Shown: piece by piece, positions 1,557-64,000 of the stretch | Layout of the letters: each line of letters begins with the position of its first letter | Numbering within the stretch: the first letter of the stretch is position 1 | Assembly: GCF_030684315.1 (NCBI RefSeq) | Contig: NC_081393.1 | Location: 16,487,479-16,551,478, forward strand | Length of the DNA: 64,000 nucleotides | Direction of reading: 5' to 3' | DNA from: Stegostoma tigrinum | Lineage: Eukaryota | Translations under genes and position numbers: made by a program | Notes under the pieces: model-generated | The model's input: only the letters and a program-made list of their open reading frames with translations | What the model was told of the DNA's origin: nothing | Databases searched by the model: none

Positions 1557-2206
1557 GATTCTGGACAAACTGTAAGCTCCCAGACTACGAGGAAGTGGCA
1601 GGACACCCTCCAACACCCCCACCTCCTTATACTGAACTACAGCAGCAGAACACACAGACCTCTACCTATGAAAATGTGGTTGTCGAGAGCCAGCCTGCTT
1701 TACAGGAGTCTGTAAACTCACTTGCATTAGAGGCAACACAAGAAGCAGAGGCAACACAAGAAGCAGAGTCTAACTCATCCACTCATGAACAGGAGGATGA
1801 CCAGGTGTCTGATGACCCCACAGAGGTATCACCCACTTATCCAGCTGACAGAGAAAATGGTGACATTATTCAAGAGGAGGAATCTGCTGCACTCTCGGCC
1901 TCCGATTTTAAAATGTTGGATACGGATTCCGACCTATGTGATCAAGGGGAAGGGAAGGAAGAAAGCTCAAGGCATAGGCGGATCACAGGAGACTCTGGCA
2001 TTGAGGTGTGCGTGTGCCAGTTGGATGAGGACTCTTACCATGAGGAAGTGGGCCTGATGGGTGGTGTGAGCGCCTCTGAATGTTGCGAGTCCCCGTCATC
2101 TTATAGCTCTCACCTTCACACAGAGCAGCTCTCCAAGCAGGCTGCTAATACACACCCTCAACTGCATACTGCTAAAGAACGAGAGGAGGATGGTGACATT
2201 GTGTAG
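1557..2206 (+). CDS. WBP1: WBP1 last coding exon
   Basis: Pyrimidine tract and CAG acceptor at 1554-1556, phase-compatible with the previous exon (A|GA = Arg). Has the WW-binding motifs LPDYEEV and PPPPY plus the family motif RHRRITGDSGIEVC. TAG at 2204-2206. Confidence 0.9.
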
Positions 2207-3189
2207 CATGTGCCATTGCCCCTGGTACACAAGTGAAACACACAGATGGTGCAATCATGACTGCTGACTGTTCAGCATCAATTCTGGACTTATCCAGCGT
2301 TTTCCATAAGGTGCCTGAAATACATCAGGTGTAAGATGCAGGTTGTAGTCTATAGATGTAGTAGTTTGGATCTGTCCAGGGTTTCGCAATCAGAGTTTCT
2401 TCTAACCTTCTCTAAAAATTGACTGTAGCACTATGTACTGCTTTGGTAATTTTTCAAATCTTTGTCTTCAGAACCTCTCGTATTGAAAACATTTGACTTT
2501 CTTTTTCAAAAAGGGAGTGGGAAACAAAATCTTTCCAAAAAGAAACATCTCCTGAGACTATGCCATTTTGAGTAGGATGGTATGGGCCTGTGGTCCAGCC
2601 GTTCATCAGTACTGTTGTGCAGGTTGCTTTAGTTAATGGCATCGTTCTTTTTACCTCCTCATGGTCATATGCCACATATACTTGGAGCTCCTCATAGAAA
2701 GGCCAGCCAAGGATGAACAGATCACTATGTGGTGACTCTATGCCTGTGGTGCAGCACATTGACTCATTACTGCCACATGCCTCCAGGGCATACTCTTCAC
2801 TTTGTTAATTTATTAGCAGTGGACCTGTTGGATGCAACGTGTTGAGATGGGCGTTTAGTTTTCACATGTTATGTTGTCTAAACTGCACTAACGCATCAAA
2901 TATTTCTAAATACGAGTTTACTTTTTTTAAAAAGTTTAACTTAGATTTGGGCCTACCAACTATTATTTCTGTGGTACTGTTGGTAGAAGTTTAACTGAAA
3001 CTTTTTACCAATGAATGTTTATGTACAAGTGAAATACAAAGCCTTTATATTCATGTTAAATATAGCACCCACAGCAAAAAAAAACCAAACCCAAAGGCAT
3101 TCACTTATTGGATACTAATACTGTTTGTATGAGAAAGTAGATAATGTGAGATGTGCAGTTTTTCTGCCCAGTTGCAATAAGCTTGCAGT

Positions 3190-3275
3190 TCTGAAGGGTC
3201 ACTGGATTCGAAATGTTAACTCTGCTTTCTCTCCACAGATGCTGTCAGACCGCTGAGTTTTTCTAATACATTCTG
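3190..3275 (+). mobile_element. Degenerate Penelope-terminus/hammerhead-derived short repeat in the inferred WBP1 3' UTR
   Basis: ttctgaagggtcactggattcgaaatgttaactctgctttctctccacagatgctg resembles the copies at 14581-14678 and 59950-60080. Confidence 0.65.
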
Positions 3276-4977
3276 ATGTTGTAATGCTTGGGGAATGGTG
3301 AGTGCATTTTCAGCTATAGGGGAAAATAGGTACGGGACTAATACATATTGGTACCAAGTTTAAAAGTGTGTTGGGTTAAACATGTTGCTTTTCTCCTCTT
3401 GTTGACCGGACAATCTATATTTCTGCAGTTCACTTTAAAGCCAAGAGTTGAGTACAGTGTTGTACAATAATTTATAACCTTAAGTACCTCTGATTAATCA
3501 GCTTCAGTGTCAAGGAAAAGACAATAATTCTAGAGTCAGCTATTGCATATGAGCAAGGAAGAATAGTTTTGTAACAGAAATGCTGCAGAACATGGGGTGA
3601 AATTGATCTATAGTGACTGTTGTTGAACAACAATCCTTATTTGTTTTGCTAGACCTATATAGTCCAAACACACTCCCAAAACTTGGAGGAAAGCATCATG
3701 TGCCACAATAAAACTGCTGCTAAAAGTCAAGGGAGCTAGGTTGAAAATTAAGCAAGGAGTCAAGAAATATATTCTGAATTGGACTGAAACTTGAGTCACA
3801 TGGTTCTGCATTTCATAAAACGTTGGGTGAGCATGAAGGAAAAATGTACAACCAGTGCCTTGCAAATAACAGGGCTGAGCAGACGATTGTCTTCTTTTAA
3901 AAGAAGACATTTTTGCAAAGTACAAGTATTGAAAATGTCTGTTGATTAAAGTGGAATGAGGTGTTGCATTACATGCTTTCAATGTGAAATCTGAACTCAT
4001 TGAATGATAGTCTGGATAATTTAGGTAGCATACTCACCACATCAGGCCAGCGTCATACATTCAGGGAGTGTTTATTACAAATACTCGAGAATGAAAGTTG
4101 GCCACACTTAATGCTCTTAGTATCGATTTTGACTGAGAACAAAGAATTAAAGACTTGTGCTCTGCGTTACAGAAGCAAATGTCACAAGCCACAATATTGT
4201 GAAAGGAAAGAGCAGCTTCCAAAAAAGAACCTTCAAGTGAACAAATAGAAATAGAACAACTAGAGTATTGTATACTTTCCCTAACATCAGATAAAGTTAG
4301 GCTTATGAATACAACTGCTAAAAACCCTTACTGACAATGTACAAAGAGGTTTGTGGCAAAACTAAGCTGATGGTAAGCAAAATATTTAAAATTCCAGTAT
4401 GAAACTCCTCCTTCAATCACAAAGCCAAGTAGTGATGACTGGAGGCCTTTTAATTCTGATATTATAGATATTTGGGAAAACAAGCAAGTAAGAAAGCCTG
4501 ATCCTCGAATTAACACAAGAGAACTGAAAAGGTTGCTTCCGATGAGAGAGACAGCACATTCAATCAGCAATCAGAAAGAAAGTTGATTTCTCCTCCAGTG
4601 ACATGTAAAGAACAATGTGCTTAGACGTTGAGTTGGAAAAGAAAGTTTAGCTGTAGATTCTTCTTTGAATCTATGAGCAGACCAGGAAACATATGGAGCT
4701 GTAGGGACAGAAACCTAGAGGGCAAGGGAAAGAGGAAAAACAGATATTCAGATCCTCAGACAGTGTCTTTTTAAGTAGGTAATGAGGTATCCTTTTAAAA
4801 TATTAGCTTGAGGAAGATTGTCTTTTTTTTGCAGTAGTGAAATGCAGTTATATTTTGATGCCTTTTTAATAAGAAACATTTTAATTTTGTAATACTTTGA
4901 TAGACAATGCATGTTCAAAGGTTGATGAAATTTCGTTGTACAATCTCAGTTACAGTGCTGAAGTCTTTCATATATAA

Positions 4978-5910: not shown

Positions 5911-6608
5911 ATCTCAATCCTGTAAAGATATCAGCATCTTCCCTTGCTGAGCTCTACTTAAAGTCTTTTTCTTTTTCCGCCAGCAATGGATGCCAAACAC
6001 TCCAAGTGATGACCTATGAAGCAAATCAAAATTCGGAAAGCATTCTACTGATATAGCAGCGTAATGATTTCCCAAGCTCCCAGTACAAAGTAGTAACAAA
6101 CTGACTGCATTCTGAAAGCGAGAGAGCCACTGTTACTGAAGCAAATGGACATCAGGGATGCAGATGAAGTCAGAAATGGAGAAGTGCAGAGATCTTAGGA
6201 GAGGGAGTTAATTTGACAACCAGGATGGGCATTTCACTTTTGAGCATTAGCGGACATGAGATGTAGAAGGCAACACAAATACTTTGTGTATTTTGTTTGG
6301 TTAAATCATAAACACCAAACGGTTCAAAAATATATTGTGATGTCACAGTAACCCTGGTTGTCACAGTGTTTGTGACACCAAGAGTTGAAAATTGATCTAG
6401 ATACTTGCACATTGCATTTTCTTTCCCAGCTTTATCCTGCACACTCTATTTGCTACTCTCTCTCTTTCCAAGTGTGTTGTCTACTGCAACAGAACAATTT
6501 AGAGCAACTTTGCAAGAAATTCAATCTGAAAACCGAAAAACGTCACTGACTTTGGCACTCTGTCTCATGTTAAACCAGACCCCACTGGGGTCTGCTTCAT
6601 ATAACAGG

Positions 6609-7031
6609 ATGCTGGGCTGGGATGAGTACGTGAGAAGTTTGCTTGCGGATGGGTTATGCCAAGATGCAGCAGTATTTGCATGCTCATGGCCCAGGCTGCT
6701 GGCTGCCAAACAGCAAGGACTGTTTGAGCAAATGAGCCCTCAGGAAATCAAAGCCATTGTCAGCAGTGATCGGAAGACCTTCCTCGTCAAAGGGCTCACT
6801 GTTGGCGGTAAGAAGTGCTTTGTCATCAGAGATAACTTTCATGTGGATGGGGATTACACCATGGATATCAGGATGAAACGATGGGACAGCAACCATCCTT
6901 GCCACAGCATAGCCATTGCTAGGTCCAACAAAGTCTTCATCATGATTATGGGTAAGAGAGGGGTCCATGGAGGAACGCTCAACAAAAAGGCATTTCAGAT
7001 GGCAAACTATATTAGAAAGTCTGGCTGTTAG
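6609..7031 (+). CDS. Intronless profilin, PFN3-like (140 aa)
   Basis: MLGWDEY...SPQEI...DRKTFLVKGLTVGGKKCFVIRD...MGKRGVHGGTLNKKAFQMANYIR has profilin motifs and canonical length with no introns. An in-frame upstream ATG lies at 6567, a possible CAG acceptor at 6605-6607, and AATAAA at 7103-7108. Confidence 0.92.
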   Translation: MLGWDEYVRSLLADGLCQDAAVFACSWPRLLAAKQQGLFEQMSPQEIKAIVSSDRKTFLVKGLTVGGKKCFVIRDNFHVDGDYTMDIRMKRWDSNHPCHSIAIARSNKVFIMIMGKRGVHGGTLNKKAFQMANYIRKSGC

Positions 7032-12670: not shown

Positions 12671-13837
12671 ACAACACTTGGACAGTATTTCCCACACAAC
12701 ACTGATGAAATTACGGTGATGCAGGGGTTAATGTTGAACCTACTGCATAATCCACCCTAGAAGTATTCCTCAAAATGAAGATTCAGATAGTAAAACCATG
12801 ACAAAGTAAGAACAGACAAATGCCAATGAGGAAGTGTTGCCAATGCTGTAGCAATAACCAGTTCCCTTGGTGCTAAATTCAGATGCTTTCATATGGACAT
12901 GTCAGCTACAACATTTCATAATGGAACAAACTGGATCTTAAAGAAGTGAGCCGAAACTACCTTGGTCTGAAATTTCTACCTCAGTTAACCATATACAATT
13001 TATTACCGACAAAAAAAGCACATTTTGTACAAACTTTTTGTCTTGCATTCAGCAGAACAATTCATAAGAACACATTTCAAAGAGGGTGTGGTGGGGTTTT
13101 GGCAGGGCAGGGAGGGAGTGAGAAAACATTCACACTATGACAGAAGTGCACTGATTACTTACCAAGTGAACACCAGCTGGTACAGGCATTATCATGGGGA
13201 ATGCAGCATCTAATGATGATTGACAGCTAACAGGTTTTGTTTAAATTTTAAACCAGGCAGGTTGACTGATTAGTCAGGGTGTCGTCCTGAGAAATGAACC
13301 AGGAACTGGTTGTCACCTGTGTTGTGGAGTTGAAAGGGTGCAGTATATGTACATGTTCTTTCTAACTGCAACAAAAAAGGTCTGCATATTAATACATGCA
13401 GCTTCCATGTTTCTGTAAATGTCATTCTGCAAAGCGGACTGACAATCTTGGTTGTCAGTTCAGTTTAATCCTTTGCGTACTCAGGATTATACAGCATATA
13501 TTGCCCAAATGCAGAATCGCACCTGATATTGGCAGACTTTGTTGAAAACATTTAAGTACGGGCTGGCTGGATGCAGTCTGTACTTTATTAATAGAGTCAC
13601 ATAGTCACATAGCACATAAACAGACCCTCCATGCCAACCATAATCCCAAACTCAACTAGTCCCACCTGACAGCTCCTGGTCCATATCCCCCCCAAACCTT
13701 TACTCTTCCTGTACTTATGCCTTGGGGGCGTACAGCTTATATAGCTAGCGTCACAACAACATTGAAACTCATATACCACATTACTTCTTTGTGATATGTA
13801 GAATTTCTTTTGGGCTTTACAACAGGATTTATAATAA

Positions 13838-14052
13838 CAGTGCAGAGCTGGAGGAGCACAGCAGGCCAGGCAGCATCAGAAGAGCAGGAAAGGAGGACGT
13901 TTCGAGTCAGGACCCTTCTTCAGAAATGAAGAAGAGTCCCGTTCCTAAATGTCAACTTCCCTGATCTCTGATGCTGCCTGGCCTGCTGTGCTCCTTCAGC
14001 TCCACATTGTTATCTCTGACTCCAGCATCGGCAGTTCTTGCTGTCTCTGAGC
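13838..14052. mobile_element. Palindromic miniature Penelope-terminus element with hammerhead motifs
   Basis: Inverted arms of about 90 bp centred near 13925, then a ~40-nt tail. Flanked by ATTTATAATAA at 13827-13837 and 14053-14063. Confidence 0.8.
13896..13923 (-). ncRNA. Minimal type I hammerhead ribozyme motif (intact core)
   Basis: Minus strand reads CTGAAGA-agggtcctgactc-GAAAC-GTC. Confidence 0.6.
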
Positions 14053-21567: not shown

Positions 21568-22429
21568 CGCTGCTTCGCAATCTGCACGACAAAGAACAAA
21601 TTAGTACCGCGGCAAAAACTGTGCCAGTTGGGGAACAGAGGAGATCTCACAAAACCAGAGCCTTAGAACCTCATCTGAGGGCATACCTGTACAGGAGAAT
21701 CTCCAAGCTTTACCATAACCGTGGGCATATGTATTATCACAAATTTGGCAACCTCTGCAGAGGTTGCTCCAAGCTGGTCAAAGAACCAAAATGCTGCTGT
21801 GATGAATACAGCCAGGATCAAGCTTCTGCCATGGACATCATAAAACAGCAGATCAAAAGCCACTGTGGAATACAGAGTGGCTCACAGAAACACTGCATTT
21901 GGCCCATCAAATCGATGCCAACTCTTTGCAGAAGCACAAAGTGATGTAACGCAAGCAGCCAGGAACAGAGTGCTACAAGAAGCAGACTGTGGTGCTGCCA
22001 TTCTGAGGCAAATATTTTCAATCGACATATTCAGGGGATTGCCTTTTTCTTACATCTGCTGAGACTCCAGCTTCCAACAGCAAGGCAATAGCTGCCATGT
22101 AGCTTCAGCCAGTCTTTCAGTTGTGCTGTCTCACTGAATCTTACAGTACACAGCTCCAAACAACTTTTGTTTTGTTTACTTGATTCAATATTTTGAGACA
22201 CTTGGGGTAAACATTTATACACAACACTCGAGAAACTGAACCCGTCTAAGACAAAGCATCCGACTGGATTTACACCCCAACCACAATCAAAAACTAGGGA
22301 CGACCTTGGCAGAACTAAAAGGGGAGGGAGGTAAAATTAGGCTCGGATGTAAATGTTTTGCGTAGCTGGATGCTTTCCAACATCAAAGAGGATTTCGTGA
22401 TAAGACCAGTCTTTGTGAAGCTTCAACTC

Positions 22430-24350
22430 CCCAGCCCCTCCAAATGGTCTTCCCCATCCCAATTTCCGCCATCCCCCAACACTCCTAACAACTGTCCCCT
22501 CCCTCCTCCTTTCCACCCAACATCCTATAGCTCCCCTTAACTTCCCTTCCCCACCTCTTCCCCAGCTGCTTTCTCTCCTCTCACTACTCCTTCCTAAACC
22601 CCTTCCTTTCCCTCCCCAATCCGTCCTTCCTTCCCTGTCTCCCCCTTCCCCCACCTCCTCTTCCCTTCCGCCCTCCCACAGTCCCCCATCTCTCCTTGCT
22701 CCCCAGCTCCCCTCCAGCCAATCCCCCTCCCTGCATCTCCACTGCCCTGCCAATATCCCCTCCCACCTGCCCCTTGCCAACCTTTCCCCCTCCCCCTCCC
22801 CCTTCCCATCCTTACCCACCTCCCCCTTCCCCAGCACCTCCCTCTTCCCCCATCCTACCCCTTGCCCCCTTCCCAACCTTACCCCCCTCCCACTTCCCCA
22901 GCTCCTCCCTCTTTCTCCGTTCTCCCCGCTTGCCCCTTTCCCCTCACCCCCCTCCTCCTCTGCCCCCCGCTTGCCCCCTCCCACTTGCCCAGCCCCTCCC
23001 TCTTCCCCCCACTTGCCCCCTCCCACTTCCCCAGCTCCTCCCTCTTCCCCCCACTTGCCCCCTCCCACTTCCCCAGCTCCTCCCTCTTCCCCCACTTGCC
23101 CCCTCCCACTTCCCCAGCTCCTCCCTCTTACCCCTGCTTGCCTCCTCCCACTTCCCCAGCTCCTCCCTCTTCCCCCTGCTTGCCTCCTCCCACTTACCCA
23201 GCTCCTCCCTCTTCCCCCCGCTTGCCCCGCTCCTCCCTCTTCCCCCCGCTTGCCCCCTCCCACTTCCCCGCTCCTCCCTCTTCCCCCCACTTGCCCCCTC
23301 CCACTTGCCCCCTCCCACTTCCCCAGCTCCTCCCTCTTCCCCCCGCTTGCCCCCTCCCACTTCCCCGCTCCTCCCTCTTCCCCCACTTGCCCCCTCCCAC
23401 TTCCCCCCTCCCACTTACCCAGCTCCTCCCTCTTCCCCCCGCTTGCCCCCTCCCACTTCCTCCCACTTCCCCGCTCCTCCCTCTTCCCCCACTTGCCCCC
23501 TCCCACTTCCCCCCTCCCACTTACCCAGCTCCTCCCTCTTCCCCCGCTTGCCCCCTCCCACTTACCCAGCTCCTCCCTCTTCCCCCCCGCTTGCCCCCTC
23601 CCACTTACCCAGCTCCTCCCTCTTCCCCCCACTTGCCCCCACCCACTTCCCCAGCCCCTCCCTCTTCCCCCCGCTTGCCCCCTCCCACTTCCCCAGCTCC
23701 TCCCTCTTCCCCCCGCTTGCCCCCACCCACTTCCCCAGCCCCTCCCTCTTCCCCCCGCTTGCCCCCACCCACTTCCCCAGCCCCTCCCTCTTCCCCAGCC
23801 CCTCCCTCTTTCCCCCGCTTGCCCCCTCCCACTTCCCCAGCCCCTCCCTCTTTCCCCCGCTTGCCCCCCCCACTTCCCCAGCCCCTCCCTCTTTCCCCCG
23901 CTTGCCCCCCCTACTTCCCCAGCCCCTCCCTCTTTCCCCCGCTTGCCCCCCCCACTTCCCCAGCCCCACCCTCTTTCCCCCGCTTGCCCCCCCCACTTCC
24001 CCAGCCCCTCCCTCTTTCCCCCGCTTGCCCCCTCCCACTTCCCCAGCTCCTCTTTCTTCCCCCATTTGCCCCCTTCCCCACCTCCTCCCCTCCCCAACCT
24101 TACCCCCCCACTTCCCCAGCTCCTCCCACTTCCCCGTTCTCCCCAGTTGCCCCTCCCCCTCTCCTCCGACTTCCCAACCTCGCCACCCCCCACTTCCCAA
24201 CCTCGCCCCCCCAGCTCCTCCCTCTTCCCTGTCCTCACCTCACCCCCCTCCTCCCTTTCTCCTTTCCCCGCTCCTCCTCTTCCCCCGTTCTTCCCCTCCC
24301 CAACCTTGCCCCTCTCCCATTTTCCCAGCTCCTACCCCTCGTCCCCTACC
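22430..24350. repeat. C-rich (G-rich on minus) tract with a ~42-bp minisatellite core (about 22960-24060)
   Basis: Repeated unit CCCCCGCTTGCCCCCTCCCACTTCCCCAGCTCCTCCCTCTTC and variants. Extreme strand asymmetry explains the long stop-free ORFs. Confidence 0.95.
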
Positions 24351-24401
24351 CTTAGGCACTCTCAGGCCTTACAGCTTCCTGGATCACTGGGCAGCAATTA
24401 T

Positions 24402-24429
24402 CTGATGAAGGGTCTAGGCCCGAAACGTC
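24402..24429 (+). ncRNA. Minimal type I hammerhead ribozyme motif in a solo Penelope terminal fragment (about 24400-24490)
   Basis: CTGATGA-agggtctaggccc-GAAAC-GTC, identical to the core at 62983-63010. Confidence 0.7.
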
Positions 24430-24509
24430 AGCCTTCCTGCTCCTGAGATGCTGCTTGGCCTCCTGTGCTCATCCAGCTTCTCACTTTGTTACCTGATGAA
24501 GGCCTGTAA

Positions 24510-33326: not shown

Positions 33327-35030
33327 GGGATAACAAGGTGTTGAGCTGGATGAACACAGCAAGCCAAGCAGCATCAGAGGAGCAGGAAGACTGATGTTTT
33401 GGGCCTAGACCCTTCTTCAGAAATGGGGGAGGGGAAGGGGGTTCCAAAATAAATAGGGAGATAGGGGGAGGTGGACCGAAGATGGATAGAGGAGAAGACA
33501 GGTGGAAAGGAGACAGACAGGTCAAAGAGGTGGGGATGGAGCCAGTAAAGGTGAGTGTAGATGGGGAGGTGAGGAGGAGATAAGTCAGTCCAGGGAGAAT
33601 GGACAGGTCAAAGGGGTGGGATGAGGTTAGTAGGTAGGAAATGGAGGTGCAGCTTGAGGTGGGAGGAGGGGATAGGTGAGAGGAAGGACAGGTTAGGGAG
33701 GCGGGGACGAGCTGGGCTGGTTTTGGGATCCCGTAGAGGGAGGGGAGATTTTGAAGCTTGTGAAATCCAAATTGATACAACTGGGCTGCAGGATTCCCAA
33801 GCGGAATATGAGTTGCTGTTCCTGCCAGGCCCAGGATGGACATGTCATCTGAGGAATGGGAGGGGGAGTTGAAATGGTTCACGACTGGGAGGTGCAGTTG
33901 TTTATTGAAAACCGAGGGTAGGTGTTCTGCAAAGCGGTCCCCAAGCCTCCACTTGGTTTCCCCAATGTAGAGGAGGCCACAACACAGTATACCACATTAG
34001 CATATGTGCAGGTGAAAATCTGCTTGATGTTGAAAGTCTTCTTGGGTCCTGGGATGGGGATGAGGGAGGAGGTGTGGGGGCAGGTGTAGCACCTCCTGCG
34101 GTTTCAGGGAAAAGTACTGGATGTGGTATGGCTGGACGGGAGTGGGGTGCGGACAAAGGAGTCACGGAGAGAGCGTTCACTCCGGAAAGCAGACAAGGGT
34201 GGAGAGGGAAAAATGTCTTTGGTGGCGGGGTTGGATTGCAGATCGCGGAAGTGTCAGAGGATGATGCGTTGGATTTGGAGGTTGGTGGAGTGGTACATGA
34301 CGATGAGGGGGATTCTTTTTTTGTTGTTTTTGCCAGGATGGGGTGGGAGGGATGAGTTGCAGGAAATGCGGGAGACACGGTCGAGGGCGTTCTTGACCAC
34401 TGCGGAGGGGATGTTGCAGTCCTTGAAAAGCAAGGACATCTGAGATGTATGGGAGTAGTATGCCTCATCCTGGGAGCAGATGCAGCGGAGGCGAAGGAAT
34501 TGAGAATAGGGGATGGAATTTTTGCAGGAAGGTGGGTGGGAGGTGGTGTATTCTAGGTGGCTGTGGGAGTTGGTGGGCTTGAAATGGATAGTGGTTTCTT
34601 GGTGGTTGCCTGAAATGGAGACAGAGAGATCCAGGAAGGTGAGAGAGGTGCTAGAGATGGTCCAGGCGAACTTAAGGTTGGGGTGGAAGATGTTGGTGAA
34701 GTGGATGAACTGTTCGAGCTCCTCATGGGAGCACGAGGTGGCGCCGATACAGTCATCAATGTAACAGACGAAGAGGTGGGGTTTAGGGCCAGTGGAGGTA
34801 TGGAAGAGGGATTGTTCCACGTAACCTACAAAGAGGCAGGCATAGCTTGGGCCCATGCGGGTACCCATGGCCACCCCCTTTGACTGTAGGAAGTGGGAGG
34901 AATCGAAAGAGAAGTTGTTAAGGGTGAGGACGAGTTCAGCTAAGCAGATGAGGGTGTCAGTGGAGGGGCACTGGTCAGGCCTGCGGGACAGGAAGAAGGG
35001 GAGAGCCTTTAGTCCATCTGCATGGGGAAT
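33327..35030 (-). mobile_element. 5'-truncated Neptune-type Penelope-like element
   Basis: RT motifs KGVAMGTRMGPSYACLFVG and YIDD, frameshifted GIY-YIG region, and a terminal segment with a decayed hammerhead at about 33392-33420. Confidence 0.9.
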
Positions 35031-35449
35031 ACAGGCAGGGCTGACTACAGCTAATCGCAGACTTTGTCTGCTGCCCATCAAGCTCCCTATGGCTTTATTT
35101 TGTACTTGGAAAAGCACCTTTTCTGCCTTTCTCCCTTCAATCTGTCCCTTCCAGTACCTCAACCTAGTGCCGTCCAGCTCAAATACTCTTGCCAGTCACA
35201 GACCAAGTTTGAAGGGACAAAATATAAGGGTCTATAGCCATGTCCTCCGCACACCTCCAGGTTTCCAGCCATGCCAAATTCAACAAATACAGAGTGTGTG
35301 AAATTTTCACTTCCTGACATCACATTTTCCCCAAATCCTGATGACTGCATTGCATTTGTTCCACGTGTGGAGTGATTCACACACCTGCCGTATAAATATT
35401 AGCCTTTACTCCAAATGTTCTTTGATACAAGCATAAATTCTTTGTTGGT

Positions 35450-35920: not shown

Positions 35921-36969
35921 TGAAATTATACGCACTGCATTCAACATGTCATCAAAATGGCTGTTCTTCACCGGTGAGCCTAGACTGTGAGGGTAGTCTT
36001 CAGTTAACATCACTCAATTGAAGTATTTCTGGAACAGTATCACAGCAAAAAGCTACATAATTTATCACGGACTACAGTTTCAGCATTGACTGATCCATTC
36101 TGTTAATCCTTGCTATCACTTTTAGAATCGTATTGTATTCATCATTTTGTTCAGTATTGTGCTTTGGCTCTACTAGCTGCCACAATCTATCTCCAGCTCC
36201 TGACATTTTTTTTTCTCTTAATTCAGGCTCCTTAATCATGGGACCTGCTTGGTGAGTGTTTCCCATTTGCTCACAACCTGCCACAACCTATAAATCAGAA
36301 GTTGTTGGTGCATTTTCTGTTTCTGATCTAGTTTACTGCTGGCAGGCTCCAGAATCGATGCCTGTGTGTTATCTGCAGCAGTTGACAGCAGGTTCAAGGA
36401 ACTTGATTTTCAGCTGGCAACAGTAAGCCAGGGACTCACACCCAACTGACACATACGCATGGTCAAAAGTGGTGGATTGCACTCATCACAAGTGATGGGA
36501 GACAGTGGACCCGATTCTTTGAATGGTGCTGAAAAAGGGACATGTTGCTGAGGTTTTTGGCACCTTCCAGGACAAATGCAAGAATGCCAAATTTCAAACC
36601 ATAGCAACAATTTACACTACAGGAGGAAAGGGTGCTATTTCGTTGGCAAGTTGACTCTTATTGGAAACACTTTGTAGGTTGTATGAAATTTGGTGTTTTG
36701 TGTATTTGGCCTGATAAGTGCAGAAATGAAAAGCTTAGCAAGACGTCTATCCTTTTAGCAATATTCGAATTCTGTCTTGCACCACCTAAAACTCCATGCA
36801 TTTCCCTCTCTAAGCAGTCACAAGTGCCATCTCTACTTTCCCAATAAACTGGGAATTCCCAACATGATTAAAACTGCTTCCAGTCATAATCTCAAGGCAA
36901 GAACCCATAATATTGCAGTATCATGTGTGAGAATCCCATTGAAGGAAACAGGTTTGGTAACTCAAACAG

Positions 36970-37143
36970 CAGGCAAGCAGCATCTTAGGAGCAGGATAGC
37001 TAACGTTTCGGGCCTTTTCTGATGAAGGGTCTAGGCCCAAAACATCAGCTTTCCTGTTCCTCTGGTGCTGCTTGGCCTGCTGTGTTTATCCAGCTCCACA
37101 CCATGTTATCTCAGATTCTCCAGCATCTGCAGTTCCTATTATC
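36970..37143. mobile_element. Miniature inverted Penelope-terminus element with 17-bp TSD
   Basis: Short inverted arm (about 36966-37014), forward arm with a decayed hammerhead (ctgatgaagggtctaggcccaaaacatc), then a tail. TTTGGTAACTCAAACAG at 36953-36969 and 37144-37160. Confidence 0.82.
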
Positions 37144-37334
37144 TTTGGTAACTCAAACAGATATTCTGCCCATTCTCCATCAAATTTGTGATATTGTAAC
37201 TTTGTGATATTTTAATTTACTGCTTCAAGAGTGGCTCAATTGTTAGCACTCTCTCTCTCTGAGTCATGTTTTGGATTCAAGTACCACCCCAGGCTTCACC
37301 ACAAAAAGTCAAGCCTAATACAGGTGTACTGATT

Positions 37335-56507: not shown

Positions 56508-58399
56508 CCGTTGTAACCTCCAAATTATTTGTCTTCCTGCTGTCAATCTCTAAACTCAAACCATGTCCCATCTTTGTACAGTGAGAGAGAGCAGTGGAGG
56601 TGGAAATCAGAAAGCAATTCAGAGGGCTGGTGGGAAAAGGTTCTCTCCACTATTCTTAATCAGCAAGAGAGGGGAGCAATTAAAGAGGGAGTAAGTTGTA
56701 TTTGGTATGACACGTTATTCAGAAGCTATTCTTCATTTGCTAAAGATGAAGGTTCATTCAATCTGAATTAAAAGATTTTAGAAAAGCTATCAGATGAATT
56801 GAACTATCACATCAGCATCGATTGCACAGACACAGAAGATGGTAACAGTTCTTACACAGTCTAACTCTGATGGGAAGGTCACCACACAAACCCACAGAAT
56901 GAATATATATAACATTGCCTACGGAAGCTTAAATTTTAAGCAAGGGCTTTTTTTGTGAAACAAGGTTGGTTGTGATGAAGCCGTTTCCTTGGATAAAATG
57001 GCAGATTTCAAGGAAATAGGACATCAAAATAGAGTCTTCTTTCCTTCAGTAACAACAAGCCCATCAGATGTAAACTTGCTTTCCTGTGGGAGAAAACAGC
57101 CCCTAACTAAACTTGCATTTTCTATTACTATGAACAAAAGATAATGCCAGACTTCTGACAAGACCTGTCTTTATATTCCTGGACTGTTTTAACCAATGGA
57201 CAGCTTTATGTGTTTTGTTTTCTACAGTGGAAAGCTTTGACTTTATTTGAAGTCCTCAGTAAAAGAATAGCCAGAAATCCTGCACTTAAAGAAGTCTTAT
57301 TACAATAAATATACAAATATATAAACTGGACTGCAAATGTTTTGTAGGTTCCTGGCAACATATTTATCTTAATTTGCCATTCTAGATACATCATTGTGTT
57401 GTGTGACACAACTTGGGTTTTAGAGTAACCCGGGACATTTATAGTTTACAACCTTTGAATGCTTTGAGGGATGAGTACTTCTTAGCCCATGCTGTCAGAA
57501 GAATTGAAACTATAACTGGCTGAGAAGCAGGGCTCTCAACTATACCTCTAGCCAGGCTGGTGGATGCACTCTGCTTTTCCCACGCTTAACCACTGCCTTT
57601 CAAGCTGCCTCTACGACGCACAATGTTCAGTACTTCTCTTAACTCCTTACACACTGTAGCAGACCATGCATGTATGCAGCAAGACCTAGAAAACATTCCA
57701 TCCCAGTCTGAGAAGTGACAACTAGCACTATATGTTTACGTGTCCAAAAGAGAGCATTAATATTTGGTGGTATTATCATTGCTAAATTTCCTATTATCCA
57801 TATTTCTGGAGGGTCACCATTGAAACTGAACCACAGCAGCCATGTAAACACTGTGGCTACAAGAGAAGGTGCGAACTTTGCAATGGGTAACTCACTTGCT
57901 GACTCCCCAAAGCCTGTCTATCATTGACAAAACTAAGGCATGAGCACCTGCCTGGATGTATGCAGTTCCACAAACACTCAAGAAGATTAACACCAGCCAG
58001 GATGAAACAGCTCACTTGATCAGCATCCTATCCGCAATCTTAAATGTTCACTCCTTACTCCACCAGTGAACAGTAGCAGCAGTGTGTACCTTGCACTTTA
58101 ACAACTCACATTTCAGACTTCCCATTTCTCACTCCTATCGGGCAAAACTCTTTAGTGGGTTCAGGTCTTTGGAAGAACGGGGTAGGATCAAAAAGCTCCA
58201 GTTCATGGACAGACAGAAGATAAGGATCCAATATGCTGGTGACTCACTGCAGTCACAATGTCTTGTATCTTGAAAAATGTGAAAATGCCAAGCTCAGGAA
58301 ACCAGAAACAAATGCTGAAACTGCTGAAGGAACATTGATCTAACGGAAAAAAGGGAGCTTCATGCTTTATACATGGACCCTTCAAAACCAGAGCAGCAC

Positions 58400-58900
58400 T
58401 GAGAAGAAGCAACTGTTTCTGTGGAGAAAGAGAGGGAGAGAAACAAAGTCAATGTTTCAGGTCTGTGACCTTGCATCAGAATTGGGAAAAGTTAGAAATG
58501 TAATGTAATAGGTTTCGAGCAGGTGATAGGGCAGAGGGTGAAGAGATTACATGATAACAGGTCATGGGACAGATAAAGAAACAAAAGATGTCTCTAAAGG
58601 AGGTGTGAGTGACAAAATAGCTACTGTTTGAGTTCTAGAGAGATCTTTCACAAATATGCACACCAGCAAATAGACATGAAATGGAATGGGGGCAAAAGTT
58701 CTGATCTAAAATGAATGAACTTGATGTTGACCCCAGGACACTGTTAAGTATCTTTTTGAAAGGCAGTCAATGTGTGATTTTGCTTTTTCTCCAGGAGTCC
58801 AATGTTGTAGTTTGAGGTTCTTTAACATTGGAGAGTGAAGCAGTTCTGTCCATTGACATTGGTGGGAGCCACAGTAACCTCCATTATGTAATAATGGCAC
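58400..58900 (-). mobile_element. Old Penelope 3' fragment with decayed hammerhead
   Basis: Minus strand ctgatgcaaggtcacagacctgaaacattg at about 58450-58479, preceded by GIY-YIG-end-like sequence. Confidence 0.55.
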
Positions 58901-59949
58901 TGTCTAGGGCATTGCTACTCAACAGCATTCTTTGTGATGAAGAGGGGGGACGGAATCGGGGCAATCAGTTCCGGAATCTGTAATTAACAATAATAGGCAT
59001 TGACGCCCAATCTGATGGAGGCATCATCAAGGATAAGCTTGATAGAAAAAGGGCTCAGAAAGAAAGTGTGAATGATCAGATAGCCTCAATCTAGCAGCTG
59101 GCTGGATATGGGATTAATAGCATGCCCTGGCAGTAAACCAGCTGGCACCTCACACAGAGTGGCACTAAGAGGAAGTTAAAATAGAAAAGCAACAAGTGGT
59201 TAGGAAGAATGGATGAAGAACTGGCTTCATGTTGGCAAGCAGCATTAATGAAACATGAACACTACTGCCTGAGCCAGGGAACTGGCCGAGCCAGAACTGT
59301 GCGAATGAATGATGTGCCTGTGGTTCAAAGTCATTGATCGGATTGTCTGTTTGTGTCAGGTCTCTGGGGTGCAGAATGATGGATGAACGATTCCTGGCTA
59401 TGTCTGAATGAGAGATTGACTGGCCGAGAGTACCTTTGTTAATGTGATCAACCAGACGGAAAAGCCAAGAAAGAGCATTTACTTTCTAAGGCACATTTCA
59501 CTGCCTCTATGGCCTGAAGCACTTTCCAGCCATTGAGGAAACTTTTAAAATTGTCACTTTAAAGTATCTGTTGTAATGTAGGAAACCCTGCAGCCAATTT
59601 GCACACAGCAAGCTCCCACAAACAGCAATGCAATAATGACCAGACAACCTGTTGTCAATGATTTTGATGGAGGGGTTAATATTAACCAGGTCACGGGACT
59701 AACACCCCCTCTGCCCTGTAAACTCCTGCTCTTCTTTGAAACAGTACCATGAGATCTTTTAAACTGGCAGAGGAGTCCTTGGGTTAATATCTCACCTGAA
59801 AGACAGCATCTCGGACAGGCCGAATAGCCTTTGCCTTTTGGTTTTGCCTGTGTCAGGTACCAGTTGCAGCTCCATAAACAATAGGCTTGTCTCAAGAGTC
59901 ACGAGGTTGGGCATTCAAACTGCACTCATATAAACAGTTGGGCACAAAA

Positions 59950-60080
59950 ATAAAAACTGAAATAACTGCAGATGCTGGGAATTAGAAACAGAAACTGCTG
60001 GAAACGTTCAGCAGGTCTGGCAGCATCTGTGGAGAAAATTCAGAGTTAAACATTTCAGGTCTGGTGATCCTTTCCCAGAA
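59950..60080 (-). mobile_element. Short Penelope-terminus-derived repeat (same family as 14581-14678)
   Basis: Reverse complement ttctgggaaaggatcaccagacctgaaatgtttaactctg...cacagatgctgccagacctgctga. Confidence 0.7.
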
Positions 60081-60156
60081 CTGTGCACATGACGTAATAA
60101 AATGTGAGGCTGGACGAACACAGCAGGCCAAGCAGCATCTCAGGAGCACAAAAGCT

Positions 60157-60184
60157 GACGTTTCGGGCCTAGACCCTTCATCAG
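60157..60184 (-). ncRNA. Minimal type I hammerhead ribozyme motif (left arm)
   Basis: Minus strand CTGATGA-agggtctaggccc-GAAAC-GTC. Confidence 0.75.
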
Positions 60185-62982
60185 AGAGGGGGATGGGGAG
60201 AGAGTTCTGGAATAAATAGGGAGAGAGGGGGAGGCGGACCGAAGATGGAGAGTAAAGAAGATAGGTGGAGAGAGTATAGGTGGGGAGGTAGGGAGGGGAT
60301 AGGTCAGTCCAGGGAAGACGGACAGGTCAAGGAGGTGGAATGAGGTTAGTAGGTAGATGGGGGTGCGGCTTGGGGTGGGAGGAAGGGATGGGTGAGAGGA
60401 AGAACCGCTTAGGGAGGCAGAGACAGGTTGGACTGGTTTTGGGATGCAGTGGGTGGGGGGGAAGAGCTGGGCTGGTTGTGTGGTGCAGTGGGGGGAGGGG
60501 ACGAACTGGGCTGGTTTAGGGATGCAGTTGGGGAAGGGGAGATTTTGAAACTGGTGAAGTCCACATTGATACCATTAGGCTGCAGGGTTCCCAGGCGGAA
60601 TATGAGTTGCTGTTCCTGCAACCTTCGGGTGGCATCATTGTGGCACTGCAGGAGGCCCATGATGGACATGTCATCTAAAGAATGGGAGGGGGAGTGGAAA
60701 TAGTTTGCGACTGGGAGGTGCAGTTGTTTGTTGCGAACTGAGCAGAGGTGTTCTGCAAAGCGGTCTCCAAGCCTCCGCTTGGTTTCCCCAATGTAGAGGA
60801 GGCCACACCGGGTACAGTGGATGCAGTATACCACATTGGCAGATGTGCAGGTGAACCTCTGCTTAATGTGGAATGTCATCTTGGGGCCTGGGATAGGGGT
60901 GAGGGAGGAGGTGTGGGGGCAAGTGTAGCATTTCCTGCGGTTGCAGGGGAAGGTGCCGGGTGTGGTGGGGTTGGAGGGCAGTGTGGAGCGAACAAGGGAG
61001 TCACGGAGAGAGTGGTCTCTCCGGAAAGCAGACAGGGTTGGGGATGGAAAAATGTCTTGGGTGGTGGGGTCGGATTGTAAATGGCGGAAGTGTCGGAGGA
61101 TGATGCGTTGTATCCGGAGGTTGGTAGGGTGGTGTGTGAGAACGAGGGTGATCCTCTTTGGGCGGTTGTGGCGGGGGCGGGGTGTGAGGGATGTGTTGCG
61201 GGAAATATGGGAGACGCGGTCAAGGGCGTTCTCAATCACTGTGGGGGGAAAGTTGCGGTCCTTGAAGAACTTGGACATCTGGGATGTGCGGGAGTGGAAT
61301 GTCTTATCGTGGGAGCAGATGCGGCGGAGGCGGAGGAATTGGGAATAGGGGATGGAATTTTTGCAGGAGGGTGGGTGGGAGGAGGTGTATTCTCGGTAGC
61401 TGTGGGAATCAGTGGGCTTGAAATGGACATCAGTTACAAGCTGGTTGCCTGAGATGGAGACTGAGAGGTCCAGGAAGGTGAGGGATGTGCTGGAGATGGC
61501 CTAGGTGAACTGAAGGTTGGGGTGGAAGGTGTTGGTGAAGTGGATGAACTGTTCGAGCTCCTCTGGGGAGCAAGAGGCGGCACCGATACAGTCATCAATG
61601 TACCGGAGGAAGAGGTGGGGTTTGGGGCCTGTGTAGGTGCGGAAGAGGCACTGTTCCAAGTAACCTACAAAGAGGCAGGCATAGCTGGGGCCATCTCCAG
61701 CACATCCCTCACCTTCCTGGACCTCTCAGTCTCCATCTCAGGCAACCAGCTTGTAACTGATGTCCATTTCAAGCCCACCGACTCCCACAGCTACCTAGAA
61801 TACACCTCCTCCCACCCACCCTCCTGCAAAAATTCCATCCCCTATTCCCAATTCCTCCGCCTCCGCCGCATCTGCTCCCACGATAAGACATTCCACTCCC
61901 ACACATCCCGGATGTCCAAGTTCTTCAAGGACCGCAACTTTCCCCCCACAGTGATCGAGAACGCCCTTGACCGCGTCTCCCGTATTTCCGGCAACGCATC
62001 CCTCACACCCCGCCCCCACCACAACCGCCCAAAGAGGATCACCCTCGTTCTCACACACCACCCTACCAACCTCCGGATACAACGCATCATCCTCCGACAC
62101 TTCCGCCATTTACAATCCGACCCCACCACCCAAGACATTTTTCCATCCCCAACCCTGTCTGCTTTCCGGAGAGACCACTCTCTCCGTGACTCCCTTGTTC
62201 GCTCCACACTGCCCTCCAACCCCACCACACCCGGTACCTTCCCCTGCAACCGCAGGAAATGCGACACTTGCCCCCACACCTCCTCCCTCACCCCTATCCC
62301 AGGCCCCAAGATGACATTCCACATTAAGCAGAGGTTCACCTGCACATCTGCCAATGTGGTATACTGCATCCACTGTACCCGGTGTGGCTTCCTCTACATT
62401 GGGGAAACCAAGCGGAGGCTTGGAGACCGCTTTGCAGAACACCTCTGCTCAGTTCGCAACAAACAACTGCACCTCCCAGTCGCAAACCATTTCCACTCCC
62501 CCTCCCATTCTTTAGATGACATGTCCATCATGGGCCTCCTGCAGTGCCACAATGATGCCACCTGAAGGTTGCAGGAACAGCAACTCATATTCCGCCTGGG
62601 AACCCTGCAGCCTAATGGTATCAATGTGGACTTCACCAGTTTCAAAATCTCCCCTTCCCCAACTGCATCTCTAAACCAGCCCAGTTCGTTCCCTCCCCCC
62701 ACTGCACCACACAACCAGCCCAGCTCTTCCCCCCCCCACCCACTGCATCCCAAAACCAGTCCAACCTGTCTCTGCCTCCCTAAGCGGTTCTTCCTCTCAC
62801 CCATCCCTTCCTCCTACCCCAAGCCGCACCCCCATCTACCTACTAACCTCATCCCACCTCCTTGACCTGTCCGTCTTCCCTGGACTGACCTATCCCCTCC
62901 CTACCTCCCCACCTATACTCTCTCCACCTATCTTCTTTACTCTCCATCTTCGGTCCACCTCCCCCTCTCTCCATCCCCCTCT

Positions 62983-63010
62983 CTGATGAAGGGTCTAGGC
63001 CCGAAACGTC
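62983..63010 (+). ncRNA. Minimal type I hammerhead ribozyme motif (right arm)
   Basis: CTGATGA core, stem II gggt/ctag/gccc, GAAAC-GTC with a loop-less palindromic stem III (ACGT), as known for Penelope-associated minimal hammerheads. Confidence 0.75.
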
Positions 63011-64000
63011 AGCTTTTGTGCTCCTGAGATGCTGCTTGGCCTGCTGTGTTCGTCCAGCCTCACATTTTATTATCTTGGAATTCTCCAGCATCTGCAGTTC
63101 CCATTATCTCTGTGCACATGACGTAGGCTGATTTTCAAGTGTACTACTGAGGGAGCACTGCTCTATCAAAGATTCTGTCATAATATGGCATTGTTTGTTG
63201 AAATGTTAAATTTGACAACCCTATCTGCCCTCACTAGTTGATACAGCATGTCCAGACTCGATTGTACTACCTCATCAAAACACAGGGGAGTTCTCCCTGG
63301 CATCCCTGCCCTATATTTATCAATTAACATAACTAAAACAAATTATGTGGTTAGTATTACAGTGTGTAAGCATGTCATCATGTGTAACATCTGCCCGTTC
63401 AGACCGCTGGGCCACGGCTCAGCTCTGGAATCCTCTTGTCAGCACTTTCTCCAAGATGAGTACATTCATGCAGTTATGTGGACACAGAACACTCAACAAG
63501 ATTCGTGCATCGTCACAGGGTCCTGATGGGCTATTTATTACTCTGTATATCAGACTAGGGGCAGCGATTTCCTCCTTATTTCCAAAAGCTCGATCTTTCC
63601 AATCAGAATGAGGAAAGGGTAACAAAAAAGAGACTCTTTGCTTTCCACAGTCAGTACCCATTTTCTGCTCTTCTGCTCTGAATTAATCTCTGCACTCTCA
63701 TATAAATCTGAGGTTTCCTCATTATTCCTCGAGGCTGGCAGAACTTGGGAAAGATTTCAAGATTTAAGAGCAAGACAGACTCTGATTGTGAGTTAACTGC
63801 GAGCAAACAGGCAGAAATGTTTTGAAATACACAGGTCTGTGTGAGAGCCCTCCAAACAACTGCAAATCTTCAGCTGCTTCCTCACGTTCAAAAATCTCTC
63901 ACTTGGAAAGCACTATTTTGAAAGGTTTACAAGGAAACGGGGTGGGGTGGAAGGCAGGGGTATAGCTAATTGGATAATCGTTCAATGAGCTAGCAGGAGG

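Follow-up and report, generated by a model that had tools for sequence, protein, structure and literature searches.

A head-to-head Penelope-like insertion in Stegostoma tigrinum and the origin of its inverted arms

Anatomy of the insertion and identity of the element

The window analyzed here is a stretch of 64,000 nucleotides of the Stegostoma tigrinum genome (contig NC_081393.1). At positions 60081-63125 it harbours a single dead, 5'-truncated insertion of 3 kb, consisting of two copies of the 3' part of one element arranged head to head. The longer, tail-less copy lies on the minus strand (60097-61692) and covers positions 1954-3549 of the 3,591-nt element unit, for which locus L054 serves as coordinate reference. 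It contains the RT core, the thumb, a CX4CxxC linker, GIY-YIG and the 3' pLTR region. The shorter, tailed copy lies on the plus strand (61688-63109; unit positions 2144-3587). The original prediction described near-perfect inverted arms (60097-61501 and 61689-63071), and indeed an alignment of 60095-61501 to reverse-complemented 61689-63072 covers 1,382 bases and contains 20 mismatches (1.45 %; Poisson 95 % range 0.9-2.2 %), among which 17 transitions and 9 at CpG. The arms also differ by 2 nt in poly-C length, and the right arm carries a 25-nt deletion near 62971 that had gone unmentioned. The unpaired RT segment of ~187 bp noted earlier between the arms (61502-61688, minus strand, 187 nt) reads as RT core including the YIDD motif (RYIDD) and runs on into the left arm; it is simply the surplus 5' part of the longer copy.

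The two copies meet at 61688-61692 in a microhomology, GGGCC, common to both. It had been read as the 4-nt GGCC, but is 5 nt long against the family majority, because a TGG-to-TAG change at 61502 later gave the left copy a stop of its own (codon 61500-61502, minus strand). The right copy has the expected TGA at 62563 (62563-62565), and with these stops both copies are dead. Only the right arm bears the predicted tail of 38 nt (63072-63109, plus strand), located between ATTATCT motifs at unit positions 3554 and 3587; the left arm lacks it. The TSD, CTGTGCACATGACGTA, is an exact direct repeat at 60081-60096 and 63110-63125 (both given on the plus strand). The element matches the TSD edge by 2 nt at the tail-less end and by 1 nt at the tailed end, so that the TSD, originally given as 16 bp, is 13 bp long at least and 16 bp at most. 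A single TSD around both copies supports the view that the structure arose in one integration event.

The TSD adjoins the 5' edge of an older, decayed Penelope-like end (59941-60080, minus strand) outside the insertion, which has a broken hammerhead and a tail-like stretch, short sequence matches and high repeat depth. No host gene was recognised near the insertion in the open reading frame lists for 43-60 kb or for the 20 kb downstream, in which short exons would escape.

A minimal hammerhead motif is located near each outer end, at 60157-60184 (minus strand, predicted cut after GUC at 60157) and at 62983-63010 (plus strand, predicted cut after GUC at 63010), as located with a published descriptor (PMC4209133). 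The 28-nt motif is the same in both places and identical to the commonest form in the family (64 of 112 ends); a regular expression found the motif in 90 of the 112 sampled family ends. The claim of intact, outward-facing hammerheads thus holds for the sequence motif in both arms, but an Rfam scan of 58000-64000 returned no family at E≤1 and the hammerhead monomer folded no better than shuffles (z 0.07). Folding of four stretches likewise gave no stability above shuffles. The motifs resemble the minimal hammerheads of metazoan PLEs in having a core with a long helix II, no stable helix III and an unpaired base before helix II (PMC4209133). Pairs of minimal hammerheads on opposite strands have already been reported in Schistosoma, 100-700 bp apart (PMC4209133), while the pair of this insertion lies 2.8 kb apart and faces outward. 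Both strands carry a hammerhead because the 3' end was copied twice, and only for that reason. Given this distance and orientation, any one transcript has only one sense motif, and a dimer form could not come from this locus alone. The corresponding lizard motif cleaved only when protein was added (PMC11167929). The GIY-YIG domain predicted in both arms was matched in both, but weakly and under the Pfam cut-off (E 3.4e-4 and 5.1e-4).

Judged by its sequence, the insertion belongs to a Neptune/Nematis-type Penelope-like element. The Penelope-like identity proposed earlier is supported by RT, GIY-YIG, linker, pLTR, tail and hammerhead features. L054 is a full unit, with a stop-to-stop open reading frame of 1,078 aa, a 307-nt direct pLTR and a 519-nt inverted arm; its frame matches RVT_1 (E 2.7e-5) and GIY-YIG (E 0.0076), both under the Pfam cut-offs. 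It has the layout of endonuclease-bearing PLEs, a single frame with RT followed by a C-terminal GIY-YIG, the domain that the arms match weakly. Two motifs defined for endonuclease-bearing PLEs (PMC8557442) were read from translations, CCHH with two cysteines between GIY and YIG (VVYCIHCTRCGFLYIG plus downstream histidines) and DKG (KPADKGG in L054). Structural traits of PLEs are found as direct pLTRs in L033, L054 and L188 and as the one-sided tail and TSD at this locus. Upstream of GIY-YIG, the left arm and L054 carry the linker CNRRKCYTC (CX4CxxC). Such a CX2-5CxxC linker is a Neptune/Nematis trait absent in Penelope/Poseidon (PMC8557442).

A DNA transposon or MITE with terminal inverted repeats was rejected, as the ends are asymmetric and each simple two-armed copy has its own junction. 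MITE-like mobility of the two-armed structure as a unit was rejected as well, the sole multi-copy case being carried inside a larger repeated unit. L002, at first sight a repeat of this insertion's junction, turned out to possess a junction and a TSD of its own, and propagation as a unit was rejected here too.

Elsewhere in the window, an older relative of the family (77 % identity) lies at 33329-35035 on the minus strand. A further family 3' end is found at 22337-24494, with a hammerhead at 24402; in front of this end lie ~2 kb of expanded C-rich tandem sequence, similar to the 39-nt repeats of the element itself.

Two-armed copies in the genome

A 29-mer from the spacer RT has 9,130 exact matches in the genome. 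Two samples of the family were compared. The first, which favours copies like this insertion, started from 75 loci of 10 kb taken from the top matches of two genome searches; nine loci that were repeats of one amplified unit and two without an anchorable complete block were excluded, and this insertion and L002 were added (n=66). Two-armed copies made up 47/66 and single-ended copies 19/66. The 47 comprised 37 tailed/tail-less pairs, three tailed twice, one tail-less twice and six with one end untyped. The second sample, every fifth of the first 100 listed matches of the RT 29-mer, all on C1 (n=20), held 12 tailed/tail-less pairs and no other two-armed type. The mirror-image shape is therefore common in the genome, accounting for about two thirds of the sampled copies. 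Nor are the arms of this insertion unusually long, as had been proposed: by paired length it ranks 7th of 38 simple two-armed copies, with 6/38 longer, and eight head-to-head pairs with arms of at least 1.5 kb occur among the first 100 listed matches of the 29-mer, which extrapolates to several hundred such pairs genome-wide.

Family ends fall near two ATTATCT motifs that lie 33 nt apart in the reference unit L054. The TSD length was 13-16 bp in 37 of the 43 TSDs called, with one mismatch at most allowed. When both ends could be typed, a tailed arm was paired with a tail-less arm in 49/53 two-armed copies (p 3.5e-11 against 50:50), and in the four exceptions the copy is compound or no TSD was called. 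The tail-less end also occurs as a lone 3' end, in 10/19 single-ended copies of the first sample and 4/8 of the second. The tailed arm was the shorter one in 24 of 38 copies and the longer one in 10 (24 against 10: p 0.024), the arms being near-equal in the remaining four (0.94 expected; p 0.013). Overlap at the junctions averaged 1.2 nt, compared to 0.58 by chance (20 junctions without inserts, p 0.002). Inserts were present at 11/31 junctions, and 7/8 inserts of at least 5 nt match element sequence over at least 9 nt.

Mini fold-backs of ~180-240 bp with the same tailed/tail-less pairing were also encountered, for example at L035:1652-1888, L062:5129-5356 and L100:3391-3631, and in the window at 13831-14037 and 36966-37144. 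Many of their arms come to a stop at unit positions 3458-3461, immediately ahead of the hammerhead. The direct 5' pLTRs of L033, L054 and L188 start at differing unit positions (3162, 3285 and 3201, respectively), upstream of this stop, and such starts would fit multimeric or circular RNA templates. In raw counts over 42 insertions, A was found in 25 at position -3 before the left TSD and T in 23 at position +1 after the right TSD. A dimeric endonuclease might leave such an apparently symmetric bias, A-rich to the left and T-rich to the right.

One of the two-armed insertions sits inside a repeated unit, at least 10 kb long, of which ten copies are spread over nine small contigs (loci L071, L075, L076, L078, L079, L089-L092 and L103; contigs C581, C159, C75, C749, C80, C247, C103, C95 and C30) with 98.5-99.8 % identity. 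No Rfam family was found in this unit. It is a large tandem or segmental repeat that has multiplied its fold-back passively.

Origin of the two arms

Published work calls an inverted truncated copy with one TSD and a one-sided tail a typical layout (PMC3846280; PMC8557442). Like the complex insertion unit of endonuclease-bearing PLEs described there, the present insertion has an inverted 5'-truncated copy head to head within one TSD, a 30-40 bp tail at one end only, and RT followed by GIY-YIG; unlike that unit, both of its arms are long truncated copies, without a full unit or a direct pLTR between them. As a single locus it is ordinary, a dead copy with a published layout. These papers explain the inversion by self-priming on an antisense template, and they attribute the tail to endonuclease resolution (PMC8557442; PMC3846280). 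The family data bear on how PLEs make inverted arms and a one-sided tail.

The two arms of an insertion resemble each other far more than arms of different insertions. Rare variants common to both arms occur at 2.66 per kb within insertions and at 0.057 between insertions (43 pairs; ~46-fold). At 35 subfamily sites the arms differ at 9.8 % within an insertion compared to 47.8 % between insertions (42 pairs), and the second sample repeated this with 9.3 % against 42.4 % (10 pairs). The arms of the present insertion differ at 1/31 such sites. Exceptions are L036, L051, L034, L100 and L099, in which the arms differ at 22-31 % of subfamily sites (8/29 in L036, 6/25 in L051), and L170, which has no TSD call, at 17/27 (63 %). 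The youngest pairs have near-identical arms, with 0/1,878 and about 1/2,525 differences.

What the sequences show is the anatomy with its single TSD, the tailed/tail-less pairing, a haplotype common to both arms and clock-like divergence. The explanation that we consider probable is that both target strands primed reverse transcription on RNA from one source element, at two start sites, followed by joining through microhomology. After a staggered cut, one strand would prime at the start site that marks the tail end and the other ~35 nt upstream, both on RNA of this source element. The cDNA 3' ends would then anneal, each priming second-strand synthesis of the other, and the two cDNAs would be joined here via the 5-nt microhomology and elsewhere via short microhomology or small templated inserts. 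We infer that both primings belong to one event, with one start site per strand and annealing of the cDNA ends. In L1 twin priming the second target strand also primes reverse transcription, and the inverted part is joined by microhomology within one TSD. There the second priming takes place at an internal, upstream position and another part of the element is copied, which leaves nothing duplicated; here both primings would lie near the 3' end and the same region is copied twice.

Support for such priming comes from the Poseidon element PAc of Anolis carolinensis, which, like the present family, has two RT start sites bounding the tail and a minimal hammerhead upstream. In vitro, both target strands were cleaved and extended, and reverse transcription began at these two sites; a dimer is predicted (PMC11167929). 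PAc belongs to the Poseidon clade, from which the CX2-5CxxC linker sets the present family apart. In vitro, neither strand preferred one of the start sites with the lizard enzyme, which counts against one site per strand, and the available part of the text does not derive inverted arms from two-strand priming (PMC11167929). The near-strict tailed/tail-less pairing and the shared arm haplotype yield predictions open to the existing lizard system in vitro.

The original prediction invoked template switching. It was proposed for PLE inversions, argued from palindromic junctions, that self-priming occurs on an antisense template (PMC3846280). A cDNA that turns on itself or on antisense RNA would copy back toward the 3' end and join the target, with the spacer arising at the switch point or through subsequent loss of sequence at the tip of the hairpin. 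The shared arm haplotype would follow directly, and the excess of near-equal arms and the short inverted element-derived inserts at junctions also speak for it. However, a cDNA that folds back on itself has no template for anything upstream of the switch point, whereas in 24/38 copies, and here too, it is the tail-less arm that is longer. A tail-primed cDNA folding back copies only what it contains, so that the tail-less arm should be the shorter, and a cDNA primed at the tail-less site cannot supply a tail. As the left arm has ~190 nt of extra RT and no tail, neither arm is a plain copy of the other without further deletion. Moreover, the tail-less end occurs alone as a 3' end, its counterpart in the lizard element is an RT start site (PMC11167929), and very young pairs already have long spacers (L178, with identical arms and a spacer of about 470 nt). 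We consider this route unlikely, and priming from both strands fits better. The sequence agrees with more than one order of events. A perfect fold-back with later one-sided deletion at the tip would give the same product. The four near-equal pairs fit folding back with tip deletion or two cDNAs running off one broken RNA end.

It is improbable that different RNAs, or two separate insertions at a single position, gave rise to the arms and that gene conversion between inverted arms evened them out later, in which case arm divergence would date the last conversion and not the insertion. Mosaic and discordant arm pairs do exist, and the shared rare variants show only a slight surplus of synonymous changes over those confined to one arm (43:21 against 261:72, p 0.075). 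In the amplified unit, four sites of the ten fold-back copies have a non-majority base on both arms, a hint of arm-to-arm transfer or recurrent mutation. Against this stand the single TSD, the independence of shared rare variants from arm divergence (rho -0.07), and their placement, which shows no preference for stretches where the arms agree (p 0.20). When arm divergence is low, private variants of the unpaired part are few as well, and in 0/10 amplified copies did both arms acquire the same new base. The 40/320 'erased' arm differences of the amplified unit were considered as signs of conversion and rejected; mostly they show the family-majority base, as expected for later mutations in some copies. 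For the present insertion, no sibling with its full rare haplotype was found in 60 loci (the first 30 of 54 and the first 30 of 96 matches), which leaves room for arm-to-arm conversion at its four shared rare variants. Two of these four were searched, and their carriers have unrelated backgrounds (60 of 150 matches).

An assembly or sequencing artefact is highly improbable: long inverted repeats are a known assembly hazard (PMC8557442) and no contig among those listed spans the central junction or the whole element, but 20 substitutions and a deletion separate the arms, their ends correspond to different start sites of the family, and a TSD encloses them. Contigs from two samples of the species contain 20 nt of the tail along with the TSD and the right flank, and other family copies have their own junctions and TSDs.

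Within two-strand priming, one RNA molecule may be used rather than two from the same locus, a choice that the strict pairing of start sites favours. A tentative extension, somewhat less likely to be right than wrong, is that a dimer, with its two RT sites resting on start points ~35 nt apart, one per cut strand, makes both copies from one RNA in the same event. If true, this would account for the almost invariable single use of each start site, for the one haplotype of each insertion although more than one subfamily is active, for the tendency of the tailed (trailing) arm to be shorter and for the arms that end at an identical base. PLEs would then possess a two-ended mode of integration that differs from LINE second-strand synthesis, and each two-armed copy would carry an LTR-like clock.

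Arm divergence as a relative date

The more the arms of an insertion diverge, the more private variants its unpaired part carries (rho 0.70, p 5e-5, n=27). Arm divergence ranges from 0 to 5.8 %, with the present insertion 17th lowest of 43. TSD copies differ at 10/519 bases (1.9 %) and arms at 950/44,804 (2.1 %), the TSD figure coming from a caller that accepts one mismatch at most; a TSD mismatch did not go with significantly greater age of the insertion (p 0.22). The earlier idea that arm divergence dates an insertion as paired LTRs do is thus supported for a rough, relative clock. With it, single copies of a retroelement class that lacks true LTRs can be dated in relative terms, by extrapolation probably thousands of copies in this genome. 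In the mostly non-subscription literature consulted, no arm-haplotype or arm-clock analysis of PLEs was found, and the accessible part of a 2026 retrozyme preprint (10.64898/2026.07.22.740005) has nothing on inversions. So many long inverted repeats may also be a source of dsRNA, as the original prediction supposed for a read-through transcript of this insertion, and of rearrangements.

Among eight public runs, organism F covers both flanks of the insertion at roughly 92-96 % identity, with no bridging contig among those listed. Since its flanks differ by about 4-8 %, the insertion is probably younger than the split from organism F.

Two further open reading frames were observed in the window, both on the plus strand. 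The frame at 1526-2206 has a PPxY motif and presumably resembles the last exon of a WBP1-like gene, and the intronless frame at 6396-7031 is one that we take to be profilin-like.
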